Positions 17,516 to 45,004 are shown, counted from the first letter of the stretch. The stretch: 61,258 bases of DNA from Nanobdellota archaeon (GCA_040751885.1 JBFMFP010000001.1:1-61258), one strand, 5' to 3'. Notes: a model not told the origin generated them from the letters alone. Numbers and translations are program-made.

Positions 17516-17639
17516 GCCCCAGTAGCTCAGTGGCTAGAGCACCTGACTTGTAGGGTGCTTTTATCTGCTATGTTTGCAAAATTTAAAAAAAGCATAGCAA
17601 GATATCAGGAGGTCGTGGGTTCAACTCCCACCTGGGGCT
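17516..17639 (+). tRNA. tRNA-Thr(UGU) with a 51-nt canonical 37/38 intron (17553-17603)
   Basis: GCCCCAG/CTGGGGC acceptor, GCTCAGTGGCTAGAGC D arm, CCTGA-CTTGTA...A-TCAGG anticodon arm, GTGGGTTCAACTCCCAC T arm. The intron contains a gctatg/catagc hairpin. Confidence 0.85.
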
Positions 17640-18064
17640 CTTTCTTTTTTTGGGTAAAATATCGCGTAAATCAACTGCTTAAACGTCAATCCGAAGATAA
17701 TTTTCTCTGGGTATTCCAGTTGCTGCGGGATTTCGTAAGACATGAGAATGAAATAGTTATAAAGAATTGAATACCAAATGATATAAAACAATGAGAATTT
17801 AGTTAATTTATTTCTCTGTAATATATTATTTCTAATTTCATCCCTGTTTTTTTTCTAACCAATCCACAGCGTCATCTAATTCGCCAATTTGGTCAATAAG
17901 TAATAATGTTCTTACTTCTGAGTGGAAATAAACATAAACTTTAAATATAGCAAAGCGCACAAATATTTGAGCATGAACAGTGCGCTTTGCTTATTACGAA
18001 CGAGCATCTATTCGCTCAATTATTTATGCGAGTGAGTATAGTTGGTTGCGAATAACCTAAAAAA

Positions 18065-18954
18065 ATGGTCAATGCCATTACGTTTGAGCAATCGACTTTA
18101 CAATTACTGTTTTCTAGAGAAGAATACAATCAATTTAAAGAAATAATTACAGACTTATGCTTAACTTTTCCAGACATAATAGGTGCTTTTATCACAGGAA
18201 GTTTAACTCAAAAGATAGATCTTCCTGATCCGCCAGCACCAGGTGAAAACTTGGGTAATTTGGCAAAAGCATACGCGAGTATTGTTGGGAGGACGAGAAG
18301 AAAACTATTTCCCATATAGATTCTGATTTAGATTTTTGGATACTTACTGAGGAACAAGAAGGAAATGAAAGAATCCAGAATATCCTTTCTGAAAGAGCTT
18401 TGGAGTTATTACAATGGTATTCATCACAAGATAAAGGTGTTGATTTGGTTGAGTGGATTCATTTAAAGCGTCAGGCTTTCGATGAATTTTATAAAAAGCC
18501 ATTTTTATATTCTAACAGATGGTTAACTACTAGTTCAAATCCAGCACACGCTCTTGGTTTCAAAAAAGCACTCGAAGAGAGAATAGGCGATTCTTTACCA
18601 AAATTAAGAACTAAGATTGATTACTATTTTAGGAAAAGTTTTCCAGGGCAATTCATTGAAGCAAGATCATTTCCTTCCTCTGTATTTAATTTAAAAACTG
18701 AAAGAATACCAGTAATGAACTCGGAAGATAGAACTCCGTTTCCTTTTTATCTAAGAGATTGGGTAGATTTGGAAAGAAATTGTTTAATTTTATACTCTGC
18801 AGGAAACAATCAATCATTAATTTATCCATTCAATCCGAAAGGGATGGTTCCCGGAGAAAAAATTGCAGAGAGCATTAATTGGACACCCCGGCATATAGAC
18901 TTTGTATTATATAAAGAGGGTAAAAAAACAAATGACAACCTCAACCATTTTTAA
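18065..18954 (+). pseudogene. Nucleotidyltransferase-fold gene split by a frameshift near 18296-18320
   Basis: ORF 18065-18319 carries GAFITGSL. The frame feeding ORF 18400-18954 is open from 18259 and reads ...KKTISHIDSDLDFWILTEE. GS...DxD is restored only if the frames are joined at the agaagaaaac run. Confidence 0.5.
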
Positions 18955-19561
18955 TTCAGACACCACCATTATTTTTGAGGGGATAAAAGGGTGTGGTAAA
19001 TCTACACAGGCTAAACTATTAGTAGATTATTTGTCTCGCAGCAGTTCAGTTAGATATTTAGATACGGGAGAGGTATATCCTCTCATAAAACAAATACGGC
19101 CCAAAAATCCGGAAACTGCTTTAGGAATAATACAAGAATCACTTTTTTTCCAGTTTATGAATTGGGTGAGATTTTGTGATCAAGAACATTATGATATTGC
19201 CGTTGTGGATAGATTTCTTTTATCTAATTGTGTTTATACCCTTGAAAAAATGCAGCGATTTGGCATCAAGCACAATCCAGATGCAGTTAGGTCAACAATA
19301 TTAAACCCTTTGGGGTTAGATCCATTACAATATACAATTACATTATATTTAGATTGTCCAGTTGATATTGCTCAAGAACGTACTTTACAGCGTCAAAGGA
19401 ATGCATTTAGTATACCAGAACAGAGCAAGGCCAGAGAACTTTATCAGCAGGAAATTAAACGCTATCCTTATAGTTTGAAAATTACTGGGGGGTCAGCAGA
19501 TCCAAAAGTAGTTCACTCTGAAATTTTGGAGTCATTGGAAGAAGTTCTCACAAATTTATAA
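18932..19561 (+). CDS. Thymidylate-kinase-like P-loop kinase
   Basis: IIFEGIKGCGKSTQAKLL (Tmk-type P-loop) and VVDRFLLSNCVY (DR motif). The ATG at 18932 is preferred over the TTG at 18902. Confidence 0.65.
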   Translation: MTTSTIFNSDTTIIFEGIKGCGKSTQAKLLVDYLSRSSSVRYLDTGEVYPLIKQIRPKNPETALGIIQESLFFQFMNWVRFCDQEHYDIAVVDRFLLSNCVYTLEKMQRFGIKHNPDAVRSTILNPLGLDPLQYTITLYLDCPVDIAQERTLQRQRNAFSIPEQSKARELYQQEIKRYPYSLKITGGSADPKVVHSEILESLEEVLTNL

Positions 19562-19962
19562 ATTTCTTCCAAACAATTGCAAACTTCGGAAAATTTTAGT
19601 AGTTTCTTAGCTTCTTCAAAAGTAAACCAAGCGAATCCCCTATGTTCCGAGGAAATAATAGGGTTCTTATTACACAGACCAACAAATAATACCATTTTTC
19701 GTAAAGAACCAGAAGGAGCTTTATATTCATAGGTAAAACTCTTCAACTGTCTATTTTCTTTTGCAATGGTAATATCTTTATCAACATTAAAGTTCACTTC
19801 TTCAGTCAGTTCCCGCTTAGCGGTATCATAATACGTTTCAGAATGTTCTTGATGTCCTTTTGGGAACTCCCATTCTCCAAGATTGGGATGTTTTAATAAT
19901 AAAAAAAATATTTCTGGTGCTTTTTGGTATAATACAAACCCACACGATACTTCTTTTTGCAT
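19513..19962 (-). CDS. Nudix hydrolase
   Basis: Nudix box GHQEHSETYYDTAKRELTEEVNF. Confidence 0.85.
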   Translation of the reverse strand: MQKEVSCGFVLYQKAPEIFFLLLKHPNLGEWEFPKGHQEHSETYYDTAKRELTEEVNFNVDKDITIAKENRQLKSFTYEYKAPSGSLRKMVLFVGLCNKNPIISSEHRGFAWFTFEEAKKLLKFSEVCNCLEEIYKFVRTSSNDSKISE

Positions 19963-20110
19963 CCTAAGTTAATTTCCTGATTGATTTATATACTTTTCTG
20001 AGGAGACTGCCTCTTTGTCATATTAACGAAACAACTATGCCCGCAAAAACTCTTTCCGCTTCGCTCCAACCCAGCATTGTGTGGCAGCGTCTTACTTAAT
20101 GTATAGTACC

Positions 20111-20214
20111 GATTTTGGTTTACACTAAAAATAAAAAATTCATTTTTAAATGTTTATAAATAAAAACACCACTACCCCGCAGGTTTCTTTTTTTTCAAAA
20201 TGTAAACCAAAATC
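20111..20214. repeat. 13-bp perfect inverted repeat gattttggtttac / gtaaaccaaaatc with a 78-bp spacer
   Basis: Read directly at 20111-20123 and 20202-20214. A third partial copy, aaatgtaaaccgatt, lies at about 20408. Confidence 0.7.
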
Positions 20215-20351
20215 TATTGTTTATACTGTTGCTCTATTTTCCACAGTCCCATTCTACTAATCATCATAGCGCAGGCTATTTCTTTCTTTTCTATTCCTTT
20301 CTTTATTTGCCGAATAATCCATTTTCTTTTTTTTTCATTAAGTTTATACAT
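20214..20351 (-). CDS. 45-aa HTH-like ORF, possibly a transposase or resolvase N-terminal remnant
   Basis: MYKLNEKKRKWIIRQIKKGIEKKEIACAMMISRMGLWKIEQQYKQ. Flanked by aaatgtaaacc direct repeats. Below the ORF-track size cut-off. Confidence 0.3.
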   Translation of the reverse strand: MYKLNEKKRKWIIRQIKKGIEKKEIACAMMISRMGLWKIEQQYKQ

Positions 20352-20546
20352 TGTTCTCAATCCTCCTTTTGGATCATCAACTTTTTTTCTTAATTTATAA
20401 ACCTAAAGAAATGTAAACCGATTATGATACTAAACAATGAAATTTCACAACCAAAACATTTAAAAATAACAACCATTTTCATAAAAAATAAATGATGGGT
20501 GTACGTTAATTAAATGATGGATGTTAATCATTCTGGGTGTTATTAA

Positions 20547-21176
20547 ATGGAAGAAAGATTAAAGACAGGAACCACAACAGTGGGGATAGTGTGTAAGGAC
20601 GGCGTTGTCCTTGCTGCAGATAAAAGGGCTACGGCCGGGAATATGATTGTGGACAAGAGGGCGGAAAAAGTCCATATCCTTTCAGATGATTTTGCTGTGA
20701 CTATCGCTGGAACTGTATCCGATGCCCAGCTGATGATCAAGCTGATCAAAGCTGAGCTTAAGCTTAAGGAAGTGCGCACGTACAAAAGCCCTTCTGTGAA
20801 AGAAGCGGCCAACCTGCTTGGCGGGCTGTTATATTCAAACATTAGAAAAATGAGCATGATTTTTGGCATTGCCCACTTTTTGCTTGCCGGGAAGGACAAT
20901 GAAGGCGTTCATTTATATGATTTATACCCGGATGGAAGCGTTACGGAAGTGCAGGACTTTGTTTCTTCCGGCTCAGGCTCGGTTTTTGCTTACGGTGTTT
21001 TAGAAACACATTATAAAAAAGACATGACTGTCAGCGAAGCTGTCAATTTGGCTGTCAAAGCAGTAAATACAGCATTGCAGAGGGACAGTGCAACTGGCAA
21101 CGGAATAGATGTAGTTACCATAACAGACAGGGAAATCAAGCGGGTGATGAGGAAAGAATTAGTTTGCAGCTTGTAA
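20547..21176 (+). CDS. psmB: Proteasome subunit beta
   Basis: TGTTTVGIVCKDGVVLAADKRAT (Thr1 after a short propeptide). Confidence 0.9.
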   Translation: MEERLKTGTTTVGIVCKDGVVLAADKRATAGNMIVDKRAEKVHILSDDFAVTIAGTVSDAQLMIKLIKAELKLKEVRTYKSPSVKEAANLLGGLLYSNIRKMSMIFGIAHFLLAGKDNEGVHLYDLYPDGSVTEVQDFVSSGSGSVFAYGVLETHYKKDMTVSEAVNLAVKAVNTALQRDSATGNGIDVVTITDREIKRVMRKELVCSL

Positions 21177-21399
21177 TTTTTCTACTAGTTTTAGATAATT
21201 AACCAATTCGTTTAGTGATTGTCAACAGCTAAAATCATAATTGTAACGTTTGCAACATTAGTTTGTAGCATTAAATTTCAAATAATTCAGTTCAATAATT
21301 AAGCAATTCAAATAATTAGGTAATTCAAATAATTAAGCAAATTGAGCATTTATAATAAATAGATAACAATTAAACACGAGGTTAAATACAAAATTAATT

Positions 21400-23289
21400 A
21401 TGGCCGATATACTTAAAGAGATAATTAAACTGCTGCCGGAAGGAAAAATATCTGATGCAGCATTTGAAGGCGCTAACATAGTGCTGTACACAAAGAACAA
21501 AGATTTTTTCATAGATAATGGCGGAACGATCCGCAATGCCGTCAAAGAGTTCAGGAAGAGGATAGAGCTGCGTCCCGATCCTTCTTTATGCATGGAGCTG
21601 GAAGAGGCTAAAAAGTTTATCCAGCAAATTATCCCCGAAGAAGCCTGCGCACAGGAATTTATTTTTGATCCGCCCAGGTCACAGGTGATCATTCATGCTG
21701 AAAAGCCCGGGTTGGTCATCGGGAAGCAGGGAGAGTACCTTAAAGAGATTCGTGAGAAGACCTTCTGGGTGCCATTAATTCAACGCCTGCCTCCGATAAG
21801 GTCCAGGCTGATTGAAGGCATCCGTTCAGTCCTATACGAAAATGCTGCTGAACGGAAAAAATTTCTTGACAAGACCGGGCACAGGATTTATGACGGCTGG
21901 ATCAGGGAAAAGAAACACGAATGGGTTCGCCTATCCTGTTTAGGTGCATCCAGGCAGGTTGGGAGGAGCTGTTTCTTATTGCAGACGCCGGAATCAAGAG
22001 TTCTTTTAGATTGCGGCATAGATCCTGGGCAGGAGGGAGCAGAGTCATATCCATTCCTTGATGCTCCTGAATTTAATATCAGCGAGATAGACGCAGTTGT
22101 GGTTACACATTCGCACTTAGACCATTCCGGGCTGATACCTTACCTGTTTAAATTTGGATATACAGGCCCGGTTTACTGCACTTTACCGACAAGGGATGTC
22201 ATGTCCTTGCTGCAACTGGATATGATTAAGATTCAGCGTTCTGAGGGTAAAGAGCCCATTTACACCAGCGAGGAGGTCAGGCAGATGGTCTTACATACCA
22301 TTTGTCCGGATTATGAAGAAGTTACTGACATTACTCCCGACGTCAGGCTGACTTTCTATAACGCTGGGCATATCTTAGGCAGCTCTATTGTCCATTTGAA
22401 CATAGGCAACGGCTTGCACAATTTTGCTTATACCGGTGATTTGAAATATGCACGCAGCAATGTTCTGGAATCTGCAGACACACAGTTCCCCAGGCTTGAA
22501 ACGCTGATGATTGAGTCCACTTATGGCGGGAAAGAAAATGTAATTATGGAGCGGGAAGCTGACGATTACATGATTGACGTCATCCAGAAAACGTTTGAGC
22601 GCGGCGGGAAAGTTTTAATGCCTGTCTTGGGAGCAGGAAGGGCACAGGAAGTTATGATCATTGTTGAGCGGCTGATGCGCGAGAAGAGAATTCCTGAAGT
22701 ACCTGTTTATCTTGACGGGATGCTCTGGGACGTTACGGCCATACATACGGCTTACCCGGAATTCTTAAACAGGAATATAAGAGAACATATCTTTCACAAA
22801 GAGAACAACCCTTTTCTTTCACCTGTTTTTAAGCAGGTAGGCTTGCCGAAGGAAAGGAAGAAAATCATTCTTGAAGAAGGTCCGTGCCTGATCTTAGCTA
22901 CTTCGGGTATGCTTATCGGTGGGGCTTCAGTTGAATATCTCAAAGAGCTCTGCGAAGGCAAGAAGCACTCCCTCGTTTTTAGCTGCTACCAGCCGCCTGG
23001 GACTTTGGGCCACCGCATCAGGGAAGGCGAGAAAGAGGTAATGTTCCGCGATAACGGAAAGGGACAGGTGTATAACATCAATATGGAAGTGCATAAGGTT
23101 GAGATAACCGGACACTCTGACAGAAAGCAATTGATGAATTTTATCAAACGGTGCAATCCCCAGCCGCGTAAGATCATCATTGTGCACGGTGAAAGTTCAA
23201 GATGCTTGGATTTGGCTTCTTCTGTACACAAGACTTTCAGGATAGAAACAGTAGCTCCAAAGAATTTGGAAGTGATAAGGATAAAGTAA
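21400..23289 (+). CDS. aCPSF1/FttA-type KH, metallo-beta-lactamase and beta-CASP ribonuclease
   Basis: 629 aa. N-terminal KH region, VTHSHLDHSG (HxHxDH), beta-CASP C-terminus. Confidence 0.9.
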   Translation: MADILKEIIKLLPEGKISDAAFEGANIVLYTKNKDFFIDNGGTIRNAVKEFRKRIELRPDPSLCMELEEAKKFIQQIIPEEACAQEFIFDPPRSQVIIHAEKPGLVIGKQGEYLKEIREKTFWVPLIQRLPPIRSRLIEGIRSVLYENAAERKKFLDKTGHRIYDGWIREKKHEWVRLSCLGASRQVGRSCFLLQTPESRVLLDCGIDPGQEGAESYPFLDAPEFNISEIDAVVVTHSHLDHSGLIPYLFKFGYTGPVYCTLPTRDVMSLLQLDMIKIQRSEGKEPIYTSEEVRQMVLHTICPDYEEVTDITPDVRLTFYNAGHILGSSIVHLNIGNGLHNFAYTGDLKYARSNVLESADTQFPRLETLMIESTYGGKENVIMEREADDYMIDVIQKTFERGGKVLMPVLGAGRAQEVMIIVERLMREKRIPEVPVYLDGMLWDVTAIHTAYPEFLNRNIREHIFHKENNPFLSPVFKQVGLPKERKKIILEEGPCLILATSGMLIGGASVEYLKELCEGKKHSLVFSCYQPPGTLGHRIREGEKEVMFRDNGKGQVYNINMEVHKVEITGHSDRKQLMNFIKRCNPQPRKIIIVHGESSRCLDLASSVHKTFRIETVAPKNLEVIRIK

Positions 23290-23299
23290 GACCTAAACG

Positions 23300-23307
23300 T
23301 TTATAAA
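23300..23307 (+). promoter_or_regulatory. TATA-like box tttataaa about 27 nt upstream of the first GCCAGCG copy
   Basis: It is the only TATA-like element upstream of tRNA-Ser. None lies upstream of the second copy. Confidence 0.4.
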
Positions 23308-23333
23308 ATCAAACAGGAATTCTTTCCATTATT

Positions 23334-23561
23334 GCCAGCGTCGCATGCACAGAAATAGATTAAGATTTCTGGTCGCGACTCGGCATTACCATGCCAGCGT
23401 CGCATAATCTGGTACTTTGCGTAAGCAAAGGTTTACGCGAAGCGGAAAATTGCGCAGGTCTTGAAGCAGCTTTAAGAAAGTCGCATCAAAATGGCGGTTA
23501 AAGCCACCTAAAAGTAAACCTGTCCCTTCGGGGATTCTCGGTTCAAATCCGAGCGCTGGCG
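23334..23561 (+). tRNA. tRNA-Ser(UGA), class II, with at least 2 introns and a duplicated 13-nt 5' end
   Basis: After removing about 33 nt (~23417-23449, D-loop/D-stem boundary) and 23466-23516 (37/38), the sequence reads GCCAGCG-TC-GCA-TAATCTGGTAC..-TGC-G-CAGGT-CTTGAAA-ACCTG-TCCCTTCGGGGATT-CTCGG-TTCAAAT-CCGAG-CGCTGGC-G. GCCAGCGTCGCAT occurs at both 23334 and 23393. Confidence 0.7.
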
Positions 23562-23566
23562 TCAAT

Positions 23567-24616: not shown

Positions 24617-24701
24617 GCAAGGGAAGAAATAAGTGAATTATATAAACTTTTATCTCATTTTTTTTAATTTTATCAAATTAGCTTTTTTAAAAAAACAGTT
24701 T

Positions 24702-25799: not shown

Positions 25800-25904
25800 T
25801 TTTTGTCAAAGAAGTGAATTATTTAAAAAGCTTATTCATTAATTATTCATTTCGTCTCTTTTTTCTTCTTAATTTAATCTTGTTTATTTTTTTCTTATTT
25901 TCTC

Positions 25905-28488: not shown

Positions 28489-28836
28489 TTAATCTAAGCC
28501 CAAACTTACTTTTATTGCCAAATTGATTCTGCTTATTAAATGATTATCCAAAGAGCCAATTCTTTTTGTAATTCTCGATTTGTCAATGGTTCTTATTTGA
28601 TTTAATAAAATTGTTGAATCCATATTTAAGCCCGATTCTTTTTTTAGAATTGTAACATTGGTGGGAAATTCTTTGGTAAATATTTTTGAAGTGATAGGAG
28701 CAATTACCGTTGTAGGAGAATATTCATTCCCAAAATCATTTTGAAGAACAACCGCAGGCCTTGTTCTGCCCTGCTCACTGCCTATTACAGGGCCTAAATT
28801 TACTAAAATTATATCTCCTCTTTTTATTTTAATCAA
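28489..28836 (-). CDS. mazF: MazF/PemK-family endoribonuclease toxin
   Basis: IKRGDIILVNLGPVIGSEQGRTRPAVVLQND. Confidence 0.85.
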   Translation of the reverse strand: MIKIKRGDIILVNLGPVIGSEQGRTRPAVVLQNDFGNEYSPTTVIAPITSKIFTKEFPTNVTILKKESGLNMDSTILLNQIRTIDKSRITKRIGSLDNHLISRINLAIKVSLGLD

Positions 28837-29159: not shown

Positions 29160-29421
29160 TGCCCCGGCCGGGAATTTCACAGATGTCACGCAAATGTCAC
29201 GCCATTTGACAGGCGGAGCCTACGCTTCGCTTCGGCACAGATGTCACGCCGTTGGAGAGGCGAGGGCATGCATCTGCTTTGAACCCGGGTCACTGCCTTT
29301 CCTTGGATTTCTCTCTCGAAAGGGCAGTATGATAGTTTATCCTCCGGTAAACCCCAGAGATATGGGATTTCACGCGGTTTGTCCCTGATTTAACAATCAG
29401 ACCGGACTACACCACCGGGGC
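29160..29421 (-). tRNA. tRNA-Glu(UUC) with three introns (D-loop, 37/38 and T-loop 59/60)
   Basis: Minus-strand read: GCCCCGG-TG-GTGTAGTCCGGTC[~65 nt]TATCAT-A-CTGCC-CTTTCG[18 nt]A-GGCAG-TGAC-CCGGG-TTCAAA[104 nt]T-CCCGG-CCGGGGC-A. Confidence 0.8.
29174..29277 (-). other. T-loop (59/60) intron, family 1, in tRNA-Glu
   Basis: The junctions form CCGGG/UUCA/AAG/CAGAUG...CAUCUG/UGAA/AUU/CCCGG, a canonical bulge-helix-bulge. The core is homologous to 44804-44917 and 33298-33427. Confidence 0.75.
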
Positions 29422-33206: not shown

Positions 33207-33441
33207 GGCCCCGTAGCTTAGCCTGGTAGAGCGCTGCTCTTATATGGGAGTGTTCTAAACAAAATCCTCCAAGCAAAGCAGAGGTCCCGAGTTCAAAGCA
33301 GATGCTACGCAGATGTCACGTCATCTGAGAGGCGAACCCTCGCTTCGCTCGGGGAAGACAAACATCCCCCTTGAGAGGCGAAGCCTACGCTGCGCTTCGG
33401 CAAGATAATAGCGTTCATCTACGAAAGTCTCGGCGGGGCCA
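33207..33441 (+). tRNA. tRNA-Ile(UAU) with a 37/38 intron and a 130-nt T-loop intron
   Basis: GGCCCCG-TA-GCTTAGCCTGGTAGAGC-G-CTGCT-CTTATA[~31 nt]A-AGCAG-AGGTC-CCGAG-TTCAAA[130 nt]T-CTCGG-CGGGGCC-A. Confidence 0.8.
33298..33427 (+). other. T-loop (59/60) intron, family 1, in tRNA-Ile (core inverted relative to the host tRNA)
   Basis: Plus-strand 33308-33354 is collinear with plus-strand 44808-44853, although the two host tRNAs are on opposite strands. Confidence 0.75.
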
Positions 33442-34185: not shown

Positions 34186-34370
34186 TGCGGCTGCCGGGAC
34201 TTCCAAGCTGCAACTATTTAGCTCGGTGGGCTTTATGCCCGCCATACTCGCCTAGATTGCTGGCTTTTGAACCCGGGTCACAGCCTCTCTGCGTAAGCAG
34301 AAAATAAAGCTTATCAATATTCTTTCTGCTCTTGGCAAGGCCGCATCTTGGACCACTGGACTACAGCCGC
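34186..34370 (-). tRNA. tRNA-Gly(GCC) with a 37/38 intron and a 66-nt T-loop intron
   Basis: GCGGCTG-TA-GTCCAGTGGTCCAAGAT-G-CGGCC-TTGCCA[~46 nt]A-GGCTG-TGAC-CCGGG-TTCAAA[66 nt]T-CCCGG-CAGCCGC-A. Confidence 0.8.
34200..34265 (-). other. T-loop (59/60) intron, family 2, in tRNA-Gly
   Basis: AGCCAGCAATCT..AGGCGAGTATGGCGGGCATAAAGCCCACCGAG..TTGCAGCTTGGAAG, homologous to 44577-44698. Confidence 0.75.
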
Positions 34371-34877: not shown

Positions 34878-35043
34878 CCCCCCTTAGTTTAGCGGCTAGA
34901 ACACTCGGCTGTAGAAATCCTTTAGAGTTGTCTGCTGACTGATATGAAAAAGGATCAGCCGTTACCGAGGGATCCCCGGTTCAAATATTGACGCTCGAGG
35001 CGACAATGCTTCGAACGGCAGTGAGAATGTCCGGGAGGGGGGA
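34878..35043 (+). tRNA. tRNA-Tyr(GUA) (C1-G72) with a 37/38 intron and a 44-nt T-loop insert
   Basis: CCCCCCT-TA-GTTTAGCGGCTAGAAC-A-CTCGG-CTGTAG[~49 nt]A-CCGAG-GGATC-CCCGG-TTCAAA[44 nt]T-CCGGG-AGGGGGG-A. Confidence 0.75.
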
Positions 35044-35960: not shown

Positions 35961-36328
35961 TCCTTCGTCCCTAAGGCAAGAATAAGAAAGCCTTTCTTGC
36001 AAAGCAAGCCGAGTTCTTCGCTGTTTAAGGCCAGCTCAGCCAAAGGTATGCCGGCAAGAGCAGAATAACGTTTGAAATTATCTTTCTCTTTCACAGGACA
36101 GTTGCTGGCGAGGAACACCCGCTGCAGGGATTTGTTTCTTATTGCTTTAAGTACCATTTTAGAGCCGATGATGAGCTTCCCGGCCTGAATTTTATCTTTA
36201 AGTTCTTTTACCTCTTTTGTATCTTCTGCTCCTTTGGCAGTTTCCCTTCTCTTGACTTTTTCCTTCTTTTTTGAATATTCTATCTCCTTCATATCTCCCG
36301 TTTCTTTTTGTTCACTTTCCTTTGCCAT
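35957..36328 (-). CDS. rpl30e: 50S ribosomal protein eL30 (L30e) with a charged N-terminal extension
   Basis: GKLIIGSKMVLKAIRNKSLQRVFLASNCP, and position after rpoA''. Confidence 0.8.
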   Translation of the reverse strand: MAKESEQKETGDMKEIEYSKKKEKVKRRETAKGAEDTKEVKELKDKIQAGKLIIGSKMVLKAIRNKSLQRVFLASNCPVKEKDNFKRYSALAGIPLAELALNSEELGLLCKKGFLILALGTKE

Positions 36329-36433
36329 TTGCTATCTCTTGTTTTTACTTTCCTATTCGTCTTATTCGTTCTATTTATTTACTATTTATTCCACCTATTT
36401 ACAAATTCATTCTTACTTATTTAATTATTTATT

Positions 36434-37576
36434 CTATTTCATTTTTGTGACTAATCCGGGCAGCCCGGTCCCCAAAGGCACAGGCTGATTAATCATTACA
36501 TTCTCTACTACAGATGTCAGATGATCTACTTCACCTTCCAGAGCTGCATTGATTAAGTGCCTTATTGGAGTTTCAAATGAAGCCCTGGCCAGGACGCTGG
36601 CTTTCTCTTTAACCACTCCATAACGGGTTATCCCTTTTACTTCACCGCTTGCACACATTACGTCCGCAACCAGCATAACGTGACGGATGTCAATGTTCAA
36701 TCCCTGCATTTCAATAACACGATAAACTTCATTGATGATAGCCTGTCTTGCCGCTTCTATTCCCAGCAGGTTGTAAATCTCATAAATGTCATTGCAGAAT
36801 GTTCTTGAGGAATCAACTTCAGGCAAGGAAAGAACTTCTTTTAGGTTGCTTCCCGAAGTTAAGATGATGTACTCTTCGCCTCTTTTAACCGGCAGAACCT
36901 GCTTTATGCCTTTAATGCCGAATACCCTTACTTCTTTTATCTTTTCTTTGAGATTGTAAAGCTCTTTAATCTCTTCAGGCTTGCCCTTCTGAATAAATTC
37001 TATTTCGTCTTCTGAACTTTGTATCATAAACTCCTTTGCTTTTGACTTTATTACCCTAGCTAAATCCTTAGCGGATGTGCCGTAACTTTCCAGCAGCAGT
37101 TTGTTAAGCTTAACCTTAAGGGTCTGCTCAAATATATTCAAAGAGTATTCTGAAGCAAGCTCACCAAAATTAGTTTCTTTTATCTGAGTGGCAAATTTAC
37201 GCACCTGCTCCAGCTTATTGCAAGAACTCTTAAGAAAGATTTCCATCATCGGTGTTTTTAAGTCCTTCCGCGCATCAAAAATTTCAATTATCCGCGGCAG
37301 ACCAGTTGTAACATTCATTTCGGCAACGCCGGCAAAGTGGAATGTGTTCAGCGTCATCTGCGTTCCCGGCTCGCCAATGCTTTCAGCTCCAACCAAGCCT
37401 ACACATTCGCCGGGATTGATTTTTCCGGCATTGTAAGTCTTTAAAATTTCTTCCATTACTTCTGTAAGCGCTGATTTTGAAATAGAGCCGGGAAGATTAT
37501 TTTTCACTTCGTTGAGTATGGAAGGAGGCAGCCTGTCTGCGTAACTGTCAATGAATTCTTCATGCTCTGCTTTCAT
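36434..37576 (-). CDS. rpoA2: DNA-directed RNA polymerase subunit A''
   Basis: [28 protein letters not shown]. Confidence 0.95.
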
Positions 37577-40149
37577 TTTCGTTCACCGGTAATATTTAAG
37601 ATAATTCCTTTTACATCAATCAAGCCGTTTTTGGTTTTAGTCACGTCTAAAGCATCCTCTCCGTAAGCAAACTGAACTATTCTTTCGCTGGCATCACGCA
37701 CAGAGCCATCATAAGATACTTTTAAATCCTGCATGGCATTGGACAGCCTTCTGTAAAGGTACCCTGATTTAGGCGTTCTGAGCGCTGTGTCCATGAGCGC
37801 GTCCCTTCCCGTCATGGCTCCAAAGAAAAATTCTGCAGGGGTCAGCCCGGTTTTAAAATTGTTAGTGATAAAGCCCCTTGCTTTTGGGCTTAGATCCCCT
37901 TCTTTGAAATAGGAAAGTGTCCTGCCGGTGAAACCAGTTTCAATTCTCTTCCCACGCAGGGCCTGCTGCCCAACCAAAGCAGTCATTTGGGCAATGTTTA
38001 AGGGATTTCCACGGGAGCCGCATTTAGCCATAGTTAAAGCTGTACTTTCACGGCTCTGGCGTATGGCTACATCCCCACTTTTGTTACGCGCCCGATTGAG
38101 CACTTCCAAAATCCGCAACTCTAATGTCTCTGCAGTAGTCCTCCCGGGCAGGGCTTCTAACTTACCAGAATAGAAGTGCTCTATAAACTCAAGAGCTTCC
38201 TGCTCAGATTTCCTGATGATATTATTGATCTCCTGTTTCGTTTCGGGAAGCAGATCCAAATCTCCTGTCCCTATGGAAAACCCGCGCCTGGCCAAAACAG
38301 CTATTCCCAGCTTGGAGATCTTGCCCAAAACGTCAACTGTATATGCCGGACCATACTTCTCGTAAATGTTTCTGAGCATTAACCCGCTTTCCTGTCCCAG
38401 GTTAGCTTTATCCATCAAACCTGACTTCAGCATCCCATTGACTATTCTGACTTCATTGTCACTTTTGTCTTTACCAACAAAGTTGAAATCCTTTGGCAGC
38501 AATACTGAAAAAACCTCCTTCCCGTCAATCTTTTCTTTGTGCGGCAGGGCGGAGAAGTCTTCAATCCCACAGGTATATAACAGGTCTATAGCTTCTTCAC
38601 GCGTTAATACCAGCTCCTTTGTCAGCAAATAGTTTCCGGTGATAGCATCGTGAATGCATCCAACTACGCTTAGTCCATACCTTGGGCTGATGATTTGTGT
38701 TTCTACAAGCATAAGAATCCTTGCTTCTGCACGCGCTTCTTCATTTTGGGGAATGTGCAGGTTCATTTCGTCCCCGTCAAAGTCAGCATTGTAAGGGTTA
38801 CATACAGCAGGATTCAGACGGAAGGTCCTTCCCGGAAGAACTTTTACCAGGTGGCACATCATGCTCATTCTGTGCAGGGAAGGCTGCCTGTTGAACAAAG
38901 CAATATCTCCATCCACCAAATGCCTTTCTACAATGTACTCTTCCTTCAGCTCTTCAAGAATCTCCTCTTTAGTTTCTTCAGTAATTGTTTTTCTCCTTCT
39001 GTCAGGCTTAATGATGTAATTTGCACCAGGATATTTTTTGGGCCCGTTTTCCACCAGTTTGCGCAAGTATTCTTTATTCCATTCGGTAATTCTTTCAGGT
39101 ATGGTCAAATGCATTGCCATGCTCCGGGGCACGCCAACCTCGTTAAGTGCTATCAAAGGATCGGGGCTGATTACTGTACGCGCGGAAAAATCAGTCCTTT
39201 TACCGGCAAGGTTATGCCTTATTCTTCCTTCCTTGCTCTTAATCCGCTCAGTTAAGGTTTTCAGCGGCTGGCCCCCCCTGTGACGTGCAGGCGGCAGCTG
39301 GGGCACTTCATTGTCAAAGAAGGTAGTAATATGATACTGAAGCAAATCCCATAAATCCTCAATAATGACTTCCGGCGCTCCGGCATTAATGTTCTCAAAA
39401 AGGCGCTGGTTGATACGCACAATGTCTCCTAATTTATGTGTCAAATCATCTTCGCTTCTCTCCCCTGATTCCAGGGTTATGCTCGGCCTCATTGTTACCG
39501 GAGGTATCTGCATTGTAGTTATGACCATCCATTCCGGCCTAAATCCGGAGCCATAACCAAAGGCAGCTAAATCATTATCCTGAATTTTTTCTAAACGGGC
39601 CCTTACTTCAATCGGGCTTAACCTGGTTTCATTCTCATAAAAATTGTAAGGCTTCTCCATCTTTATTTTATCCTGGCTGACATTGCAGTGAGGACATTTC
39701 TCCTTAGCTTTCAGCTTGGAAGTAACGGCCTTAACGGTCTTTATCGCTCCTTTTTTAGCTGCGGACTCCCCTTCTTCAGACTTGTCGGCAGCAGCAATAT
39801 AACGTTTCAATTTTTCTTCGGGAACAAGAATTCTTCCGCAGGACTTGCATGTGGATTTGAGAAGCTCAAAAATCTGGCGGACAAACTTGATGTGGATTAC
39901 CGGCCTGGCCAGCTCAATGTAGCCAAAATGCCCTGGACATTCTTTCAGTTTTTGGTTGCAGGTCTTGCATCTTAGCCCGGGATCAATTACCCCCAGGCGC
40001 AAATCCATTAATCCCCCGTCAACCGGATAACCTTCGCGGTCGTACAATTCCGGCGTGACTATTTTTGCTGCGGAAGCTTCGGAAACCAGTTTCGGAGAGA
40101 AGACACTAAAAGAAATGCAGGCAATTTTTTTATGAACACTGCGAACCAT
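37573..40149 (-). CDS. rpoA1: DNA-directed RNA polymerase subunit A'
   Basis: [12 protein letters not shown] catalytic motif and Zn-binding CKTC...CPGH N-terminus. Confidence 0.95.
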
Positions 40150-40398
40150 TTGTTAAACCCTTATTGTTTTTGTATAGTTTTAGTCTAATTGTTTTTGGTA
40201 TAATTTTAGTCTAATTGTTTTTTGATAGTTTTAGTATAATTTTAGTATAATGATTACTAAGTTTAATTCTCATCTGTGTTTAATTTTCGTCTATGTCTAA
40301 TTTTCACCTGTGTTTAATTTTTGTCTATGTCTAACTTTCATCTAAGTTTAATTTTCATCTAAGTTTAATTTTTATTTATGTCTAACTTTCACCTGTGT
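40150..40398. repeat. 249-bp spacer between rpoB' and rpoA' made of two degenerate tandem-repeat families
   Basis: attgttttt(g)gtata(a/g)ttttagtcta x3, then gtttaattttcatctaa / gtctatgtctaa(c/t)tttcacctgt units. The last unit runs into the rpoB' stop codon (40399-40401). Confidence 0.85.
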
Positions 40399-42204
40399 TT
40401 AATACTTGCTTTTCAAATTTAATTTGGCATACACTCCTAAAGTCCTGATTTCATCAAGCAGCAGCTTAAAGGCATAACTCATTTCAATGTTGGACATTTC
40501 TGAATTCTCACCATATAAAGGAGATAAGGAACGCTCATTTTTGCGGGCGTCATAAAAGCCCATTAATCCTGACTTCTCACATACCGGCACAACTATCTTA
40601 TCCGAGTCAAACCTTTCTTTCAGGAGAAGCGAAGCTCCATGGGCGATAAACGTGTCTTTTTCCATCTCCCCCAGACGCAGGCCCCCTTCTTTGGCTTTAC
40701 CTTCCGTAGGCTGCCTTGTTAGCAATTGTATCGGACCTCTTGCTCTGGACTGCATTTTATTTGCAACCATGTGCCTTAGACGGAGGTAATACATGTTTCC
40801 AACGTAAATTCTCGCCAGCATCCGCTTGCCGCTCCGCCCATCATAAAACGCTTCAGTTCCGTCTTCGTTAAAGCCGAGGCTGAGCAGCTCCTTCCTCAGC
40901 GCTTCTTCCTTCTCGCCTTCAAACAAAGTTCCGTCTACAAATCTTGCGGCCATTGCTCCGACCTTGCCGCTGATTAACTCATTAAGATGGGAAACAGTCA
41001 TTCTTGAAGAAACACCGTGGGGAGTGAAGATCAGATCTGGAACTATCCCTGATTCAGAGAAAGGCATATCCTGCGCCGGAACCAATATTCCCGTTACTCC
41101 TTTTTGCCCGTGCCTGCTGGTGAACTTATCCCCTATCTCAGGCACGCGCTCTTCACGCAACCTGACCTGTACTAATTTATTTCCCTCCTCATTTTCGGTA
41201 AGAAGGACGAAGTCAGCTATTCCTTTCTCGCCATGCCTTAAGATAACAGAACTTTCCCTGCGCACAGCCGCAGAGAGGTTATATTCGTCCATGCTGCTTA
41301 AGAAACGCGGCGGGCTTGTCCTGCCAATAACAACATCCCCTTCGTCAACCGTTGCTTCCGGATAAATGATGCCATCTTCCTCCAGGAAACGGTAATCATG
41401 CTCGCTCCTGTAGCCTTTAATTTCTTTGTCAGGAATTGCCACTTCGTCCATTAATCCACCTGAATATCTTAGTTCATGGGCTTCAACCGGGCGGAAGTAA
41501 GTGCTTCGTGCCAGTCCCCTTTCTACAGAACCCTTCCCAAGGATAACTCCATCTTCCATGTTGTAACCATCATAACACATTACGGCTACAACCATGTTCT
41601 GCCCGGAAGGATGCTGGTCATAATCTGTGATATCGTGCACTTTTGTTTTCAATATAGGATACTGGGGATAATGGAGGATATTGGAATCCATATCCATACG
41701 CAGATGAAAATTAGCTGCGTAAAAGCCCAAGGCCTGTTTCTGGTTTTTACTGCCAATAATCAAGCGGGAAGATTGGTTGTAATTGCCAAAGGGAACCAAA
41801 GCAGTGGTAATGCCGACAATAGCTCCGGGAGTGATTTCCAGATGAGTGTGCTCAGGAGTAAGGCCCTCCTCGGTGTAGGCAATCAAAGTATTCTCCTCTT
41901 CGGCAGCGTCCAAATACTCCACAACCCCCTGCCTGATCAAATCCATCCAGGATATTTCTCCTTCGTTAAGCTGCTTAAGGTGCTTGTCAGTAAGCAAAGG
42001 CTTTCCTTCTTTAACAACTATTAAAGGCCTTCTCGCCCTGCCTTCATCGCTGAGGAGATGAACTTCGTCGGTAGCAGCAAGGTAATGCACATTAACCAGC
42101 TCAGAAACGGCACCTTTTCTGCGCAGGTCTTTAAACTCGCTGACAAACTGCTGGGCATCGTCAACGCTGCCGATAAATTTTGAATTCAAATAGACGTCAG
42201 CCAT
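40399..42204 (-). CDS. rpoB1: DNA-directed RNA polymerase subunit B' (C-terminal half of Rpo2)
   Basis: 601 aa with a GDKFTSRHGQKGV block. Confidence 0.95.
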   Translation of the reverse strand: MADVYLNSKFIGSVDDAQQFVSEFKDLRRKGAVSELVNVHYLAATDEVHLLSDEGRARRPLIVVKEGKPLLTDKHLKQLNEGEISWMDLIRQGVVEYLDAAEEENTLIAYTEEGLTPEHTHLEITPGAIVGITTALVPFGNYNQSSRLIIGSKNQKQALGFYAANFHLRMDMDSNILHYPQYPILKTKVHDITDYDQHPSGQNMVVAVMCYDGYNMEDGVILGKGSVERGLARSTYFRPVEAHELRYSGGLMDEVAIPDKEIKGYRSEHDYRFLEEDGIIYPEATVDEGDVVIGRTSPPRFLSSMDEYNLSAAVRRESSVILRHGEKGIADFVLLTENEEGNKLVQVRLREERVPEIGDKFTSRHGQKGVTGILVPAQDMPFSESGIVPDLIFTPHGVSSRMTVSHLNELISGKVGAMAARFVDGTLFEGEKEEALRKELLSLGFNEDGTEAFYDGRSGKRMLARIYVGNMYYLRLRHMVANKMQSRARGPIQLLTRQPTEGKAKEGGLRLGEMEKDTFIAHGASLLLKERFDSDKIVVPVCEKSGLMGFYDARKNERSLSPLYGENSEMSNIEMSYAFKLLLDEIRTLGVYAKLNLKSKY

Positions 42205-42298
42205 TTTACTTTTGTGTTTTTAGGTTTGTGTTTTTAAGTTTATGCATTTTTAAGTTCATGCTTTTGTTTTTCTTCTTTGATTTTTCATGAAATCGTTA

Positions 42299-42337
42299 GG
42301 CTCGGATACCCACGTTTTCAAACGTGGGAGGAGAGCC
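42299..42337 (-). promoter_or_regulatory. Strong nested hairpin between the rpoB halves
   Basis: ggctc..cccacgtt-ttca-aacgtggg..gagcc: an 8-bp inner stem inside a 5-bp outer stem. Confidence 0.4.
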
Positions 42338-42354
42338 ATTTCCTTCATTAATGT

Positions 42355-42522
42355 TTATTTCTCTACAACAACCAATATTGCTTCATAAAACAAAGCAAAT
42401 AAAGATAATGATACTGAAAATTTGTCTAAACATTCTGTTCCTATTGTTATCAAATATGAATAAACTATCACCATAAACACAAATATCAGTAATCCGATTT
42501 TAAGCGATTTCAACTCTTGCAT
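42355..42522 (-). CDS. 55-aa two-TM small membrane protein inserted between rpoB'' and rpoB'
   Basis: MQELKSLKIGLLIFVFMVIVYSYLITIGTECLDKFSVSLSLFALFYEAILVVVEK. Same strand as the operon and below the ORF-track cut-off. Confidence 0.35.
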   Translation of the reverse strand: MQELKSLKIGLLIFVFMVIVYSYLITIGTECLDKFSVSLSLFALFYEAILVVVEK

Positions 42523-42528
42523 CTTCTA

Positions 42529-42609
42529 TATCACTCCTAATACCTTCAATATCATTAAAATGGCAAGCACGACTAATACTCCCCATCCTAAAATTTCATA
42601 CCACTCCAT
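42529..42609 (-). CDS. 26-aa single-TM micropeptide candidate
   Basis: MEWYEILGWGVLVVLAILMILKVLGV, ending 6 nt upstream of the 55-aa ORF. Confidence 0.2.
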
Positions 42610-42781
42610 TGTTCTCGTCCTCCATTTAGTTTGTAATATTTTCTTTAGGTTTATATTCAAATTTCTTATAATCTGTAACTAAATCGTCTGCTCATTTTAT
42701 CGTCTTTTTTGCACATCATATAACCAATATAACTTGTACATCATATAACCGATACATACACACCGTATAACCGATACAACT

Positions 42782-44254
42782 TCATACGGCTTCTTTCAGT
42801 CCGATATTTTTCAGCTTTTCAACAATTTCCTCTTCATCAACACTTCGTGAAATTGAGCAGAGCATAGCTAAATTTTTTCTCAGCCCGATGTTTGTACCTT
42901 CAGGAGTTTCTATCGGGCATAAGCGCCCAATATGAGTGCAATGCAGTGCGCGGGCTTCAAAATTCTCCTGCGAAGTTGATAAAGGACTGACTACTCTCTG
43001 CAGGTGTGAAACCATGTCTAAATAATTAGTACGGCTCATCCTCTGGGCGATTCCCTGCCTTCCTCCTACCCATTCCCCCGTTGCCATCGAGGAATACAAA
43101 CGGGAAGTAAGCAGTTTGCCGCGGATGATTACCCTTATTGAAGGCAGCTTTCCCCTCTTGATTATCCTCTGGAAGTTGTAAAGTATGTCTCCGACCAGAA
43201 CCTTAAAATTAACCCTGAACAGATCAATAAGAAGATCGCCGCTCATATGCAAACGCTTGTTCATGTAATGGTCTTTGTTGTCTGCAGGCCTTAAGCCATT
43301 GCCGACGTCAATGAATTTTTTTAGCATTTTGCAGAGGTTCTTTGCCTTGGCCAAACGGCTGGAAGAATCAATGCCAACATTTGGCAGAAGGAATTTGTCA
43401 ATGATTTCCTTGGTGCGCTCAACACGTACCTCTTTAGGCTGCGCCACTCCTGTTTTCCTGGCAATGAAATCTATTGCCTCCTCCTGAGTCTTGACATCAA
43501 CAAACTCAAAGAGGTTAAGCAGAGCTTCTTCATAATTCCTCTCCATAGAAATAGCCTTCATGATATTTTCATCTTTAACAATACCCAAAGCTTTGATAAT
43601 CACGATAAGAGGGACTGCTTTCACACGGGTAAAAGTAAGGTAATAAAGGCCATCTTTTTTCCTTTCAAAAGTATGGGGAATCTTATAAGAGCCTTTTACT
43701 GCAAAAAAGCGACCGCTGATCTCAGAACCGTCTTTCTCAACCATGAAATTATTTCCGGCCAGATCTTCCACCGTAACCAATAATTTTTCTGTCCCGTTGA
43801 TAATGAAATATCCCCCGGGGTCGGTAACATCCTCACCGTGCTTAATCAACTCTTCCTGGCTTAAGCCATGCAGATGGCAGTATTTACTCCTCAGCATGAT
43901 GGGGATTTTCCCAATCTCGGCGACAAAATTTTCTCTTTGGATGTCATTGACATAAGTACTGATTTCAAGCTGGATGGGGGCAGAGTAAGAAATCTTCCTT
44001 AAACGAGCTTCCATAGGGAAAATGGGCCTTTTGCTCCCGTCAGCTTCGGTAATTTCCGGCTTGCCTACGGTGACCCGGCCAAAACGAATCTTGAATTTTT
44101 CAATATTATGGGGGATTATTGCCGGCTCGGCTTCCTTGTTTTCTTCTATAACTTCCTGCAGGCCTTTTTCAATCAAATTATTAAATGACTGAATATTGCT
44201 TTCCACAAACTTTTTTTCTTCAAAATATTTTTTGACAAGTATTGACCTATCCAA
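42782..44254 (-). CDS. rpoB2: DNA-directed RNA polymerase subunit B'' (N-terminal half of Rpo2)
   Basis: 490 aa, with an N-terminal Rpo2 protrusion/lobe-like sequence ending in the ...GRLCPIETPEGTNIGL region. Confidence 0.95.
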   Translation of the reverse strand: MDRSILVKKYFEEKKFVESNIQSFNNLIEKGLQEVIEENKEAEPAIIPHNIEKFKIRFGRVTVGKPEITEADGSKRPIFPMEARLRKISYSAPIQLEISTYVNDIQRENFVAEIGKIPIMLRSKYCHLHGLSQEELIKHGEDVTDPGGYFIINGTEKLLVTVEDLAGNNFMVEKDGSEISGRFFAVKGSYKIPHTFERKKDGLYYLTFTRVKAVPLIVIIKALGIVKDENIMKAISMERNYEEALLNLFEFVDVKTQEEAIDFIARKTGVAQPKEVRVERTKEIIDKFLLPNVGIDSSSRLAKAKNLCKMLKKFIDVGNGLRPADNKDHYMNKRLHMSGDLLIDLFRVNFKVLVGDILYNFQRIIKRGKLPSIRVIIRGKLLTSRLYSSMATGEWVGGRQGIAQRMSRTNYLDMVSHLQRVVSPLSTSQENFEARALHCTHIGRLCPIETPEGTNIGLRKNLAMLCSISRSVDEEEIVEKLKNIGLKEAV

Positions 44255-44273
44255 TTTGTCCTCCTTTCCAGCT

Positions 44274-44510
44274 TCATCCTCCTATGACCAGCCTATAGTA
44301 ATAAGTAACGCCGGCAGTTTTGCTGACTCTTTCAATCTTAATAACATCCCCTGCTTTTACACTCAGATGAGCTATAGCTGGATCGTCTTTAAGAATTTTT
44401 GGCAGGGCCTGACCGTTAATATTATACTTTTCAAACAAAGCCTTTTTCTCAGAATCGTTTGCCTTTGTATGCTTGCTTACAAGTTGGTGCTTGGTAATGT
44501 TAAAAGTCAT
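44274..44510 (-). CDS. rpoH: DNA-directed RNA polymerase subunit H (Rpo5)
   Basis: LPKILKDDPAIAHLSVKAGDVIKIERVSKTAG, and position upstream of rpoB''. Confidence 0.85.
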   Translation of the reverse strand: MTFNITKHQLVSKHTKANDSEKKALFEKYNINGQALPKILKDDPAIAHLSVKAGDVIKIERVSKTAGVTYYYRLVIGG

Positions 44511-44562
44511 TTTAAGATAACCATCTAATCTTTCTGATGCCTATTCTTTTCGTAAAGTAAAG

Positions 44563-44786
44563 CGGGCCGGAAGGGACTTTCAAGCTGCAATTCTAATTTA
44601 CGCGGCGGGCTTCATGCCCGCCCTACTCGCCTATCCTCAGAAATACTACGCATTTCTGGGATGTTACAAATCTGATGATTTGAAACAGATTGCTGGCTTT
44701 TGAACCCTCGACCGCTTGATTGCTTTCCTTAAGTTACTTTTTTCAGTTAAAAGTCAAGCGCTCCAGCCAAGCTGAGCTACCGGCCC
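44563..44786 (-). tRNA. tRNA-Lys(UUU) with a 37/38 intron and a 122-nt T-loop intron
   Basis: GGGCCGG-TA-GCTCAGCTTGGCTGGAGC-G-CTTGA-CTTTTA[~27 nt]A-TCAAG-CGGTC-GAGGG-TTCAAA[122 nt]T-CCCTT-CCGGCCC-G. Confidence 0.8.
44577..44698 (-). other. T-loop (59/60) intron, family 2, in tRNA-Lys
   Basis: Same ends and core as 34200-34265, with an extra ~55-nt internal insertion. Confidence 0.75.
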
Positions 44787-44789
44787 AAA

Positions 44790-45004
44790 CGCCCTGGCCG
44801 GGAATTTCACAGATGTCACGCCATCTGAGAGGCGAACCTTCGCTTCGCTCAGGAAGACCGAAACGTGTCTTCTAAGAGGCGAGGCGACTACGCTTCGTCG
44901 CAAGGGCGTGCACTTGCTTTGAACCCGGGTCGAAGCCTTTCTCTAAACCCTCTTCCCACGGGCCTGCGACAGGGCTTCATGCTAGGCCACTACACCACCA
45001 GGGC
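44790..45004 (-). tRNA. tRNA-Asp(GUC) with an anticodon-loop intron and a 114-nt T-loop intron
   Basis: GCCCTGG-TG-GTGTAGTGGCCTAGCAT-G-AAGCC-CTGTCG[~29 nt]-GGCTT-CGAC-CCGGG-TTCAAA[114 nt]T-CCCGG-CCAGGGC-G. Lies 3 nt from tRNA-Lys. Confidence 0.8.
44804..44917 (-). other. T-loop (59/60) intron, family 1, in tRNA-Asp
   Basis: Contains two direct gagaggcga..cgcttcg units. Its ends resemble imperfect inverted repeats (GCAAGTGCACGCC / GGCGTGACATCTGTG). Confidence 0.75.

Follow-up and report, generated by a model that had tools for sequence, protein, structure and literature searches.

All eight tRNA genes detected in a 61-kb window of a DPANN archaeal genome are interrupted by putative bulge-helix-bulge introns

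Can tRNA genes that are interrupted at up to three places each still be functional genes, and if they are, how would their transcripts be made whole? This question is raised by a 61,258-nt stretch of DNA from a Nanobdellota archaeon (GCA_040751885.1 JBFMFP010000001.1:1-61258; hereafter the window, meaning the whole stretch), in which we find eight tRNA genes between positions 17,516 and 45,004. Every tRNA gene in the window is interrupted, within the limits of the methods used. We put the probability at about 90% that these are eight functional genes, whose primary transcripts would carry one to three bulge-helix-bulge (BHB) introns each, spliced by EndA and RtcB.

Across the whole window, ARAGORN in default mode reported 0 tRNAs, and Rfam at its gathering threshold gave a single tRNA match, to the Thr gene at 17516-17639, in which a 53-nt gap interrupts the anticodon loop. 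The intron-aware mode (ARAGORN -i), which the preliminary description of this DNA had proposed as a check, made tRNA-Thr(UGU) its sole call, with a 51-nt intron at position 38; the other seven genes were not called from unspliced sequence. A scan for the T-loop signature GGTTCRA found one more intact T arm, at 23540, together with six T arms that run into unrelated sequence directly after TTCAAA (33291 and 34978 on the + strand; 44925, 44706, 34273, and 29285 on the - strand). Eight genes were rebuilt by reading the loci at these signatures and splicing them in silico. Once the inserts are removed, ARAGORN returns full-length cloverleaves for Thr, Ile, Tyr, Asp, Lys, Gly, Glu, and Ser, reproducing the gene list and anticodons of the preliminary description. 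Splicing also restores identity features, including the archaeal C1-G72 pair of tRNA-Tyr, the long variable arm of tRNA-Ser, and the discriminator bases. The genes and their introns are as follows.

17516-17639, + strand: tRNA-Thr(UGU); intron 17553-17603 (51 nt, 37/38); Rfam tRNA score 61.9 bits; BHB central helix 4/4 pairs, outer helix 5 bp
23393-23561, + strand: tRNA-Ser(UGA), long variable arm; introns 23414-23448 (35 nt, D-loop 20/21) and 23466-23516 (51 nt, 37/38)
29160-29421, - strand: tRNA-Glu(UUC); introns 29337-29401 (65 nt, D-loop after G19), 29299-29316 (18 nt, 37/38), and 29174-29277 (104 nt, 59/60)
33207-33441, + strand: tRNA-Ile(UAU); introns 33245-33275 (31 nt, 37/38) and 33298-33427 (130 nt, 59/60)
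34186-34370, - strand: tRNA-Gly(GCC); introns 34287-34332 (46 nt, 37/38) and 34200-34265 (66 nt, 59/60)
34878-35043, + strand: tRNA-Tyr(GUA), C1-G72; introns 34915-34963 (49 nt, 37/38) and 34986-35029 (44 nt, 59/60)
44563-44786, - strand: tRNA-Lys(UUU); introns 44721-44747 (27 nt, 37/38) and 44577-44698 (122 nt, 59/60)
44790-45004, - strand: tRNA-Asp(GUC); introns 44939-44966 (28 nt, 37/38) and 44804-44917 (114 nt, 59/60)

The total is 16 introns in eight genes, a local density of 2.0 introns per gene, and the introns span 18-130 nt. Two or three introns are present in seven of the eight genes, at positions 19/20-20/21, 37/38, and 59/60. The individual counts (one in Thr; two each in Ser, Ile, Gly, Tyr, Lys, and Asp; three in Glu) agree with those first proposed, except that an optional third intron in Ser has to be dropped, no BHB being possible there. 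The T-loop introns (44, 66, 104, 114, 122, and 130 nt), found in six of the eight genes, lie exactly between TTCAAA (A59) and U60, with coordinates that match the earlier account of 44-130 nt inserts at 59/60. The exons of each gene are colinear and contiguous at a single locus of 124-262 nt, and the genes are therefore neither split nor permuted.

We also scanned the whole of the intergenic DNA (13.1 kb), on both strands, independently of the T-loop signature. Exhaustive two-intron BHB combinations over this DNA would amount to 7.7 million candidates; BHB-like candidates were instead removed singly and the products submitted to ARAGORN -i. This intergenic scan recovered the genes described above, apart from Glu, and yielded no additional tRNA and none that was uninterrupted, which bears out the initial claim that all tRNA genes in the window are interrupted, by at least 16 introns at D-loop, 37/38, and T-loop positions. 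The Glu gene was recovered by hand only, because two non-canonical removals are needed. Two matches obtained with ARAGORN at a lowered threshold, at 36572 and 46307, fall inside the rpoA'' and rtcB coding regions and were rejected.

Are the junctions of these inserts the kind that EndA would recognize? We scored each against the canonical geometry, in which a central helix (H) of 4 bp is bordered by 3-nt bulges that are cut after the second nucleotide, with an outer (h) and an inner (h') helix beyond them. The central helix has 4/4 pairs in 10 of the 16 introns and 3/4 in the other six; the outer helix reaches at least 5 bp in 14, is 3 bp long in the Ser D-loop intron, and is lacking in the Glu D-loop intron. 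For random site pairs in the window, the probability of an H with at least 3/4 pairs is 0.16, and that of 4/4 pairs is 0.024. The chance that all 16 introns would reach at least 3/4 is thus about 2e-13.

The motifs take a regular form at each position. All eight anticodon-loop introns are at 37/38, where the anticodon stem provides the outer helix and the intron's 3' end is paired to nucleotides 32-35. At 59/60, U54-A57 (UUCA) pairs with an intron-terminal YGAA, the 5-bp T stem forms the outer helix, and A58-A59-i1 and N-N-U60 make up the two bulges. All six T-loop introns terminate in YGAAAK/U (the slash marking the splice site), the complement of UUCA. The Ser D-loop intron has a strong motif, with H 4/4, an outer helix of 3 bp, and an inner helix of 12 bp; its 37/38 counterpart has H 3/4 and an outer helix of 6 bp. 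When the boundary of the Lys 37/38 intron is moved by 1 nt, which leaves the mature sequence unchanged, H becomes 4/4 with an outer helix of 7 bp. In tRNA-Glu, the 37/38 intron (an hBH motif with H 4/4 and an outer helix of 7 bp) is accompanied by a 59/60 intron with a strict hBHBh' motif (H 4/4, outer helix 5 bp, inner helix 6 bp) and by a D-loop intron that is HBh'-like only, with H 4/4 (GUCC paired with GGAU) and a 4-bp inner helix after a 2-nt bulge.

The D-loop of tRNA-Glu allows more than one solution. Its single 5' site, GUCC GG/, faces two alternative 3' splice motifs, GGAC AA/A and GGAU AA/A. The alternative 23-nt HBh' intron is more canonical, with an H of GUCC paired with GGAC, a 3-nt bulge, and a 6-bp inner helix. 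If this site is used, a second excision is required, since 42 extra nt would otherwise stay in the D-loop. tRNA-Glu may contain two tandem D-loop introns that share one 5' site, which would mean four excision events, above the known maximum of three. The region is counted here as one intron despite the ambiguity.

The genes also look equipped for expression. A TATA-like box of the TTTWTAAA type ends 23-25 nt before +1 in all seven tRNA transcription units, and a T-rich tract lies within a few nucleotides downstream at five of the seven unit ends, those of Ser and Tyr being without one. The spacing of the boxes suggests leaderless or very short-leader tRNA transcripts, as in Nanoarchaeum. Only 3 nt (TTT) separate tRNA-Asp from the downstream tRNA-Lys, and the two are presumably cotranscribed; because of this 3-nt gap, some 5' or 3' end processing is needed. 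The box-bearing units, and a repeat at the start of tRNA-Ser, are given below.

Upstream of 17516, 23334, 29421 (-), 33207, 34370 (-), 34878, and 45004 (-): TATA-box-bearing units
23333-23346 versus 23392-23405, + strand: direct repeat TGCCAGCGTCGCAT, in which nucleotides -1 to 13 of tRNA-Ser are copied 59 nt upstream

At tRNA-Ser, the best TATA-like box, TTTATAAAA (23300-23308), has the 25-nt spacing found at the other tRNA genes if measured to the upstream copy; it is the downstream copy, however, that makes the cloverleaf complete. The upstream duplicate may represent a long leader or a duplication relic. A third Ser intron at this place was considered and rejected: in-phase splice sites within the direct repeat need a self-complementary H, and only GCGU fits, without flanking helices. 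The 59-nt spacer between the two copies forms a stable hairpin.

If the inserts are introns, then exons and inserts should differ in how they evolve, and relatives of the host allow the comparison. An RpoB'' query of a genome collection returned 64 loci (labeled in the form L001 and referred to as relatives), all of them from Woesearchaeota/Nanoarchaeota-type DPANN metagenome-assembled genomes (MAGs), with a best identity of 84%. Judged by these matches, the host is a Woesearchaeota-like DPANN archaeon, consistent with the DPANN-like genome of the preliminary description. The GC content of the window is 34-46%. Many of the closest relatives (L002, L003, L005, and L009-L011, among others) are titled “uncultured Methanosarcinales archaeon”, and their RpoB'' and tRNA loci group with Woesearchaeota/Nanoarchaeota MAGs. 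The assignment of these bulk-submitted records to Methanosarcinales is probably mistaken.

The tRNA-Asp and tRNA-Lys pair lies upstream of rpoH, a synteny kept in most of the 64 loci. In blastn-short searches with the spliced tRNAs, exons are 90-100% identical in the relatives; in many of them the match is broken exactly at 37/38 and 59/60, and others have an unbroken match. Pairing a T-arm-anchored finder with ARAGORN yielded 170 tRNA calls for the relatives' loci and the window. Among these, the Asp gene occurs in all four states: intronless (L014, L029, L032, L033, L055, and L056), with the T-loop intron only (L020, L026, and L044), with the anticodon intron only (L022, L028, and L060), and with both (L002, L017, L021, L037, and the window). 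The Asp exons of L037 are 100% identical to those of the window, and its T-loop intron of 33 nt is unrelated to the window's 114 nt. Constrained exons with freely changing introns thus fit functional, spliced genes; pseudogenes predict the opposite.

We find 78 distinct 59/60 introns in about 45 loci, with lengths of 14-130 nt and a median of 36.5; the window accounts for the four longest. In the closest relatives, 27 of 41 tRNAs have a 59/60 intron. A gapless junction alignment of 71 of these introns, whose sequences had been chosen beforehand for a T stem able to pair and an H of 2/4 pairs or more, has the helix between 54-57 and n-2 to n-5 paired in 91.5% of cells. At position 57:n-5, the pairs are A-U (36), G-C (8), and G-U (6), and G57 is associated with C (Fisher P = 5e-4). 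The BHB helix appears to be kept by compensatory change, in the form of A57-U to G57-C double changes. Furthermore, intron load rises with relatedness to the window. With D-loop introns ignored, which makes the relatives' values a lower bound, the load is 0.84 per gene at RpoB'' identities of 65% or less, 0.87 at 68-74%, 1.37 at 75-79%, and 1.59 at 80% or more (n = 41).

Where might so many introns have come from? The Glu, Asp, and Ile T-loop introns share modules such as GGCGTGACATCTG and GAGAGGCGAAGC, which in the window are essentially confined to those three introns. The Asp and Glu introns are similar in direct orientation. In contrast, nucleotides 68-108 of the Asp intron match 53-13 of the Ile intron inverted (95% over 41 nt), and nucleotides 41-72 of the Glu intron match 105-74 of the Ile intron inverted (32 nt at 91%). 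Neither the outermost stem (CAGATG...CATCTG) nor the BHB ends are inverted in any of the three. Because stem and ends are fixed and the Ile body is flipped, we infer an inversion by recombination between the inverted repeats of the stem, a DNA-level event. The Gly and Lys T-loop introns have identical first 12 nt and a 27-nt core at 93% identity, in direct orientation, with the Lys intron resembling the Gly intron plus a 56-nt insertion. The T-loop introns would thus include two families, one comprising those of Glu, Asp, and Ile, the last with an inverted body, and the other those of Gly and Lys.

Sequence relationships extend to some of the relatives. A Gly-type T-loop intron is also found in the tRNA-Gly of L008 and an Ile-type module in the tRNA-Ile(UAU) of L012; some introns are therefore orthologous across genomes. 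Part of the Tyr anticodon intron is kept in L004 and L016. Most orthologous introns have no common sequence, and the Lys T-loop intron of the window is like the Gly intron of the same genome and unlike the Lys introns found in the relatives. In L061, the Cys, Asp, and Lys T-loop introns (3044-3168, 5411-5536, and 5567-5733) all begin with AGCCAGTTACA, and these common starts indicate, as far as sequence can, within-genome homogenization. The tRNA-Gly of L008 (- strand, reverse-strand index 4060-4221) has D-loop and T-loop introns and no anticodon intron. A two-intron tRNA-Ile(UAU) is also found in L006, L008, L012, L020, L023, and L028. The AUA decoder of the window is this tRNA-Ile(UAU) (33207-33441, + strand), not an agmatidine-requiring CAU tRNA, and tRNA-Ile(UAU) serves as AUA decoder in Nanoarchaeum and Korarchaeum as well.

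Two further searches of intron sequence were negative. The start of the Glu and Ile T-loop introns, GTTCAAAGCAGATGC, occurs at 120 or more loci in metagenomes, none with tRNA context among the matches listed, which is uninformative. No Rfam family was found within the introns in a permissive scan (E up to 10), nor any convincing C/D-box motif by eye. The introns are perhaps best seen as selfish, fast-evolving elements that would have spread, or been homogenized, between tRNA genes at the DNA level, for which the near-identical T arms would be a likely route. We suggest, tentatively and with the odds somewhat against it, that this lineage holds the highest tRNA-intron density known, about two per gene genome-wide (above the 1.54 on record), driven by a 59/60 hotspot of DNA-level mobile or homogenizing families with inverted-body copies.

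Could the inserts have a different nature altogether? One view is that they are small repeated elements that have turned these loci into tRNA pseudogenes, with functional intronless copies elsewhere. The long T-loop inserts do share modules in both orientations, like DNA elements resembling miniature inverted-repeat transposable elements, and the visible portion of the genome amounts to 61 kb. However, all eight pseudogenes would have to keep perfect cloverleaves, promoter-like boxes, and, mostly, downstream T-rich tracts. Their exons would have to remain 90-100% identical to those of syntenic orthologues in dozens of MAGs as the inserts turn over, and the BHB context at every insert, with covariation in the central helix, would be unexplained. 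This makes inactivation very improbable. We give almost no weight to self-splicing group I or group II introns, or their remnants: group I introns have been found in the rRNA genes of DPANN (PMC6125680), but inserts of 18-130 nt are far below catalytic-core size, no Rfam intron family is found at these loci at E up to 10, and there is a BHB motif at every junction. That the inserts are products of assembly or binning, through chimeric joins or collapsed repeats, is just as hard to credit. The source is probably a metagenome-assembled contig, and repeated modules could confuse assemblers; yet assemblies made independently, for many studies of many environments, have inserts at the same 37/38 and 59/60 positions (about 45 loci with 78 distinct T-loop introns), and precisely complementary BHB sequence flanks each insert.

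A further possibility accepts splicing and asks why the long T-loop introns persist: they might be kept for a function of the excised circular RNAs, as guides or regulators, or for protection against integrating elements. The persistence of Gly and Ile T-loop modules in orthologues at 80-82% RpoB'' identity speaks for this, as does the concentration of the four longest T-loop introns in this genome. Within tRNA genes, the T arm and the 3' half are also reportedly classic integration targets, as in the hypothesis of Randau and Soll. Nevertheless, the occurrence of the module in both orientations (Ile versus Asp and Glu) argues against a strand-specific RNA role, most orthologous introns are without sequence in common, and neither an Rfam match nor a clear C/D-box motif was found in them. 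We consider such a function unlikely, at roughly the level of a long shot.

Functional genes with spliced BHB introns remain our preferred explanation, and several observations weigh against it. Splicing is a prediction from the DNA, and intronless tRNA duplicates are possible in the genome outside the 61-kb window. EndA is absent from all sizeable open reading frames (ORFs) of the window in Pfam and NCBIfam searches. The motifs are relaxed, with six introns at 3/4 H and many that have no directly adjoining inner helix (hBH), and the Glu D-loop intron is without both an outer helix and a canonical 3-nt 5' bulge.

Under the proposed splicing of these eight transcripts, each pre-tRNA would fold so as to place every exon-intron junction in a short bulge beside a 4-bp helix. 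EndA would cut both bulges, and RtcB would join the exons and probably circularize the introns; the order of intron removal is one that we infer. The relaxed motifs (HBh'-like in Glu, hBH in several others) suggest an EndA of broad specificity. The preliminary description expected a heterotetrameric or epsilon2 form; by analogy with other DPANN, an alpha4 EndA with an L3 loop would be the better prior. The RtcB ligase that it reported in the window is indeed encoded there, 1 kb from tRNA-Asp.

45978-48980, + strand: RtcB tRNA-splicing ligase with intein and LAGLIDADG-like domain, 1000 aa; Pfam RtcB E = 2e-166, Intein_splicing E = 1e-14, LAGLIDADG_3

The enzyme that would join tRNA exons after intron removal must itself first undergo protein splicing.

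Other genes in the window encode archaeal RNA polymerase subunits, ribosomal proteins, aCPSF1/FttA, and deoxyhypusine synthase. PriS and PriL appear to be fused in a single ORF, and three loci carry HEPN, nucleotidyltransferase, or toxin genes, the MazF/PemK gene lying about 320 bp from tRNA-Glu.

11808-13208, + strand: single 466-aa ORF with small- and large-subunit DNA primase domains
8254-9428, - strand: HEPN/nucleotidyltransferase gene pair
54306-54731, + strand: second minimal nucleotidyltransferase gene
28489-28836, - strand: MazF/PemK toxin gene

These findings have practical consequences for annotation. Default finders see 0-1 of the eight genes, and MAGs of Woesearchaeota and other DPANN will consequently be scored as lacking many tRNAs. 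The missed tRNAs distort completeness estimates, as well as inferences about “missing” translation capacity or host dependence. If the record density and the 59/60 hotspot are real, they would account for the apparent incompleteness of DPANN tRNA sets under standard annotation. In addition, a second lineage, remote from Thermoproteales, with dense, multi-site, and apparently mobile BHB introns would provide an independent system for studying intron spread. Here, the copy with an inverted body makes events at the DNA level likelier than reverse splicing. Why 59/60 is favored, and how EndA specificity coevolves with intron load, are further questions on which the system bears, and the intein-bearing RtcB adds a further layer of selfish elements to the same pathway. 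The density, the T-loop hotspot, and the DNA-level intron dynamics merit a focused survey.

How does this compare with earlier work? BHB introns have been catalogued at each of the positions 20/21, 37/38, and 59/60 (PMC4090602). The known maximum is three introns per gene, and the record belongs to Pyrobaculum calidifontis, with 71 introns in 46 genes (1.54 per gene); mean values are 0.84 for Thermoproteales and 0.21 for archaea (PMC8450103). The comparison with Thermoproteales drawn at the outset is thus apt, both in the number of introns per gene and in the use of 59/60 (PMC8450103, PMC4090602). Multiple-intron tRNAs have been tabulated for Crenarchaeota, N. equitans, M. kandleri, Korarchaeum, and ARMAN-1/2 (PMC4033280), and similar introns across tRNA species have been read as intron transposition in Thermoproteales (PMC4033280, PMC4090602). 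For DPANN, Kaneta et al. 2018, in the sections available to us, report raised tRNA disruption in diverse members, tied to an alpha4 EndA with an L3 loop, survey one Woesearchaeota MAG with tRNAscan-SE, and call for manual curation; those sections describe no 59/60 hotspot or intron families (PMC5829648). Full-text literature on tRNA introns together with Woesearchaeota, Woesearchaeales, or DPANN yielded, beyond that paper, only one unrelated paper on group I introns.

The genes would share the BHB, EndA, and ligase machinery of the split and permuted tRNA genes of Nanoarchaeum equitans, Caldivirga, and Thermofilum, some of which belong to related lineages, but their exons are colinear and need neither trans-splicing nor permutation. 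A closer parallel for a single gene is the pre-tRNA-Glu(UUC) of Methanopyrus kandleri (PMC5829648), the same isoacceptor, which also combines a relaxed HBh' D-loop intron with a canonical 37/38 intron; the gene in the window differs in adding a 104-nt T-loop intron and in having two alternative 3' sites for its D-loop intron. ARMAN-1/2 (Micrarchaeota) and other DPANN likewise have multiple, non-canonical introns and tRNA sets that appear incomplete with standard finders (Fujishima 2011, PMC3239211; PMC5829648). Their introns are linked to an epsilon2 EndA or to an alpha4 EndA with an L3 loop, and a broad-specificity EndA would be expected here too.

The strongest resemblance is to Thermoproteales such as Pyrobaculum calidifontis (Sugahara 2008 and Fujishima 2010, as summarized in PMC4033280, PMC4090602, and PMC8450103), which have BHB or relaxed introns, up to three per gene, at 37/38, 20/21, and 59/60, and similar introns in different tRNA species of one genome. 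This resemblance is one of mechanism, not of lineage: the host is a DPANN archaeon with a window of 34-46% GC, not a hyperthermophilic crenarchaeon. Unlike in Thermoproteales, 59/60 dominates (six of eight genes here; 27 of 41 tRNAs in the closest relatives), the local density of 2.0 exceeds both the record of 1.54 and the mean of 0.84, and one intron family has an inverted body. To a specialist, disrupted tRNA genes in a DPANN archaeon are unsurprising, and in this lineage they are hardly described. The introns are of a known kind, and all their positions are of known types; what is new is their extent in this lineage: the local load reaches 2.0 introns per gene, 59/60 predominates as a hotspot, the T-loop introns are unusually long, and an inverted copy is found among the intron families.

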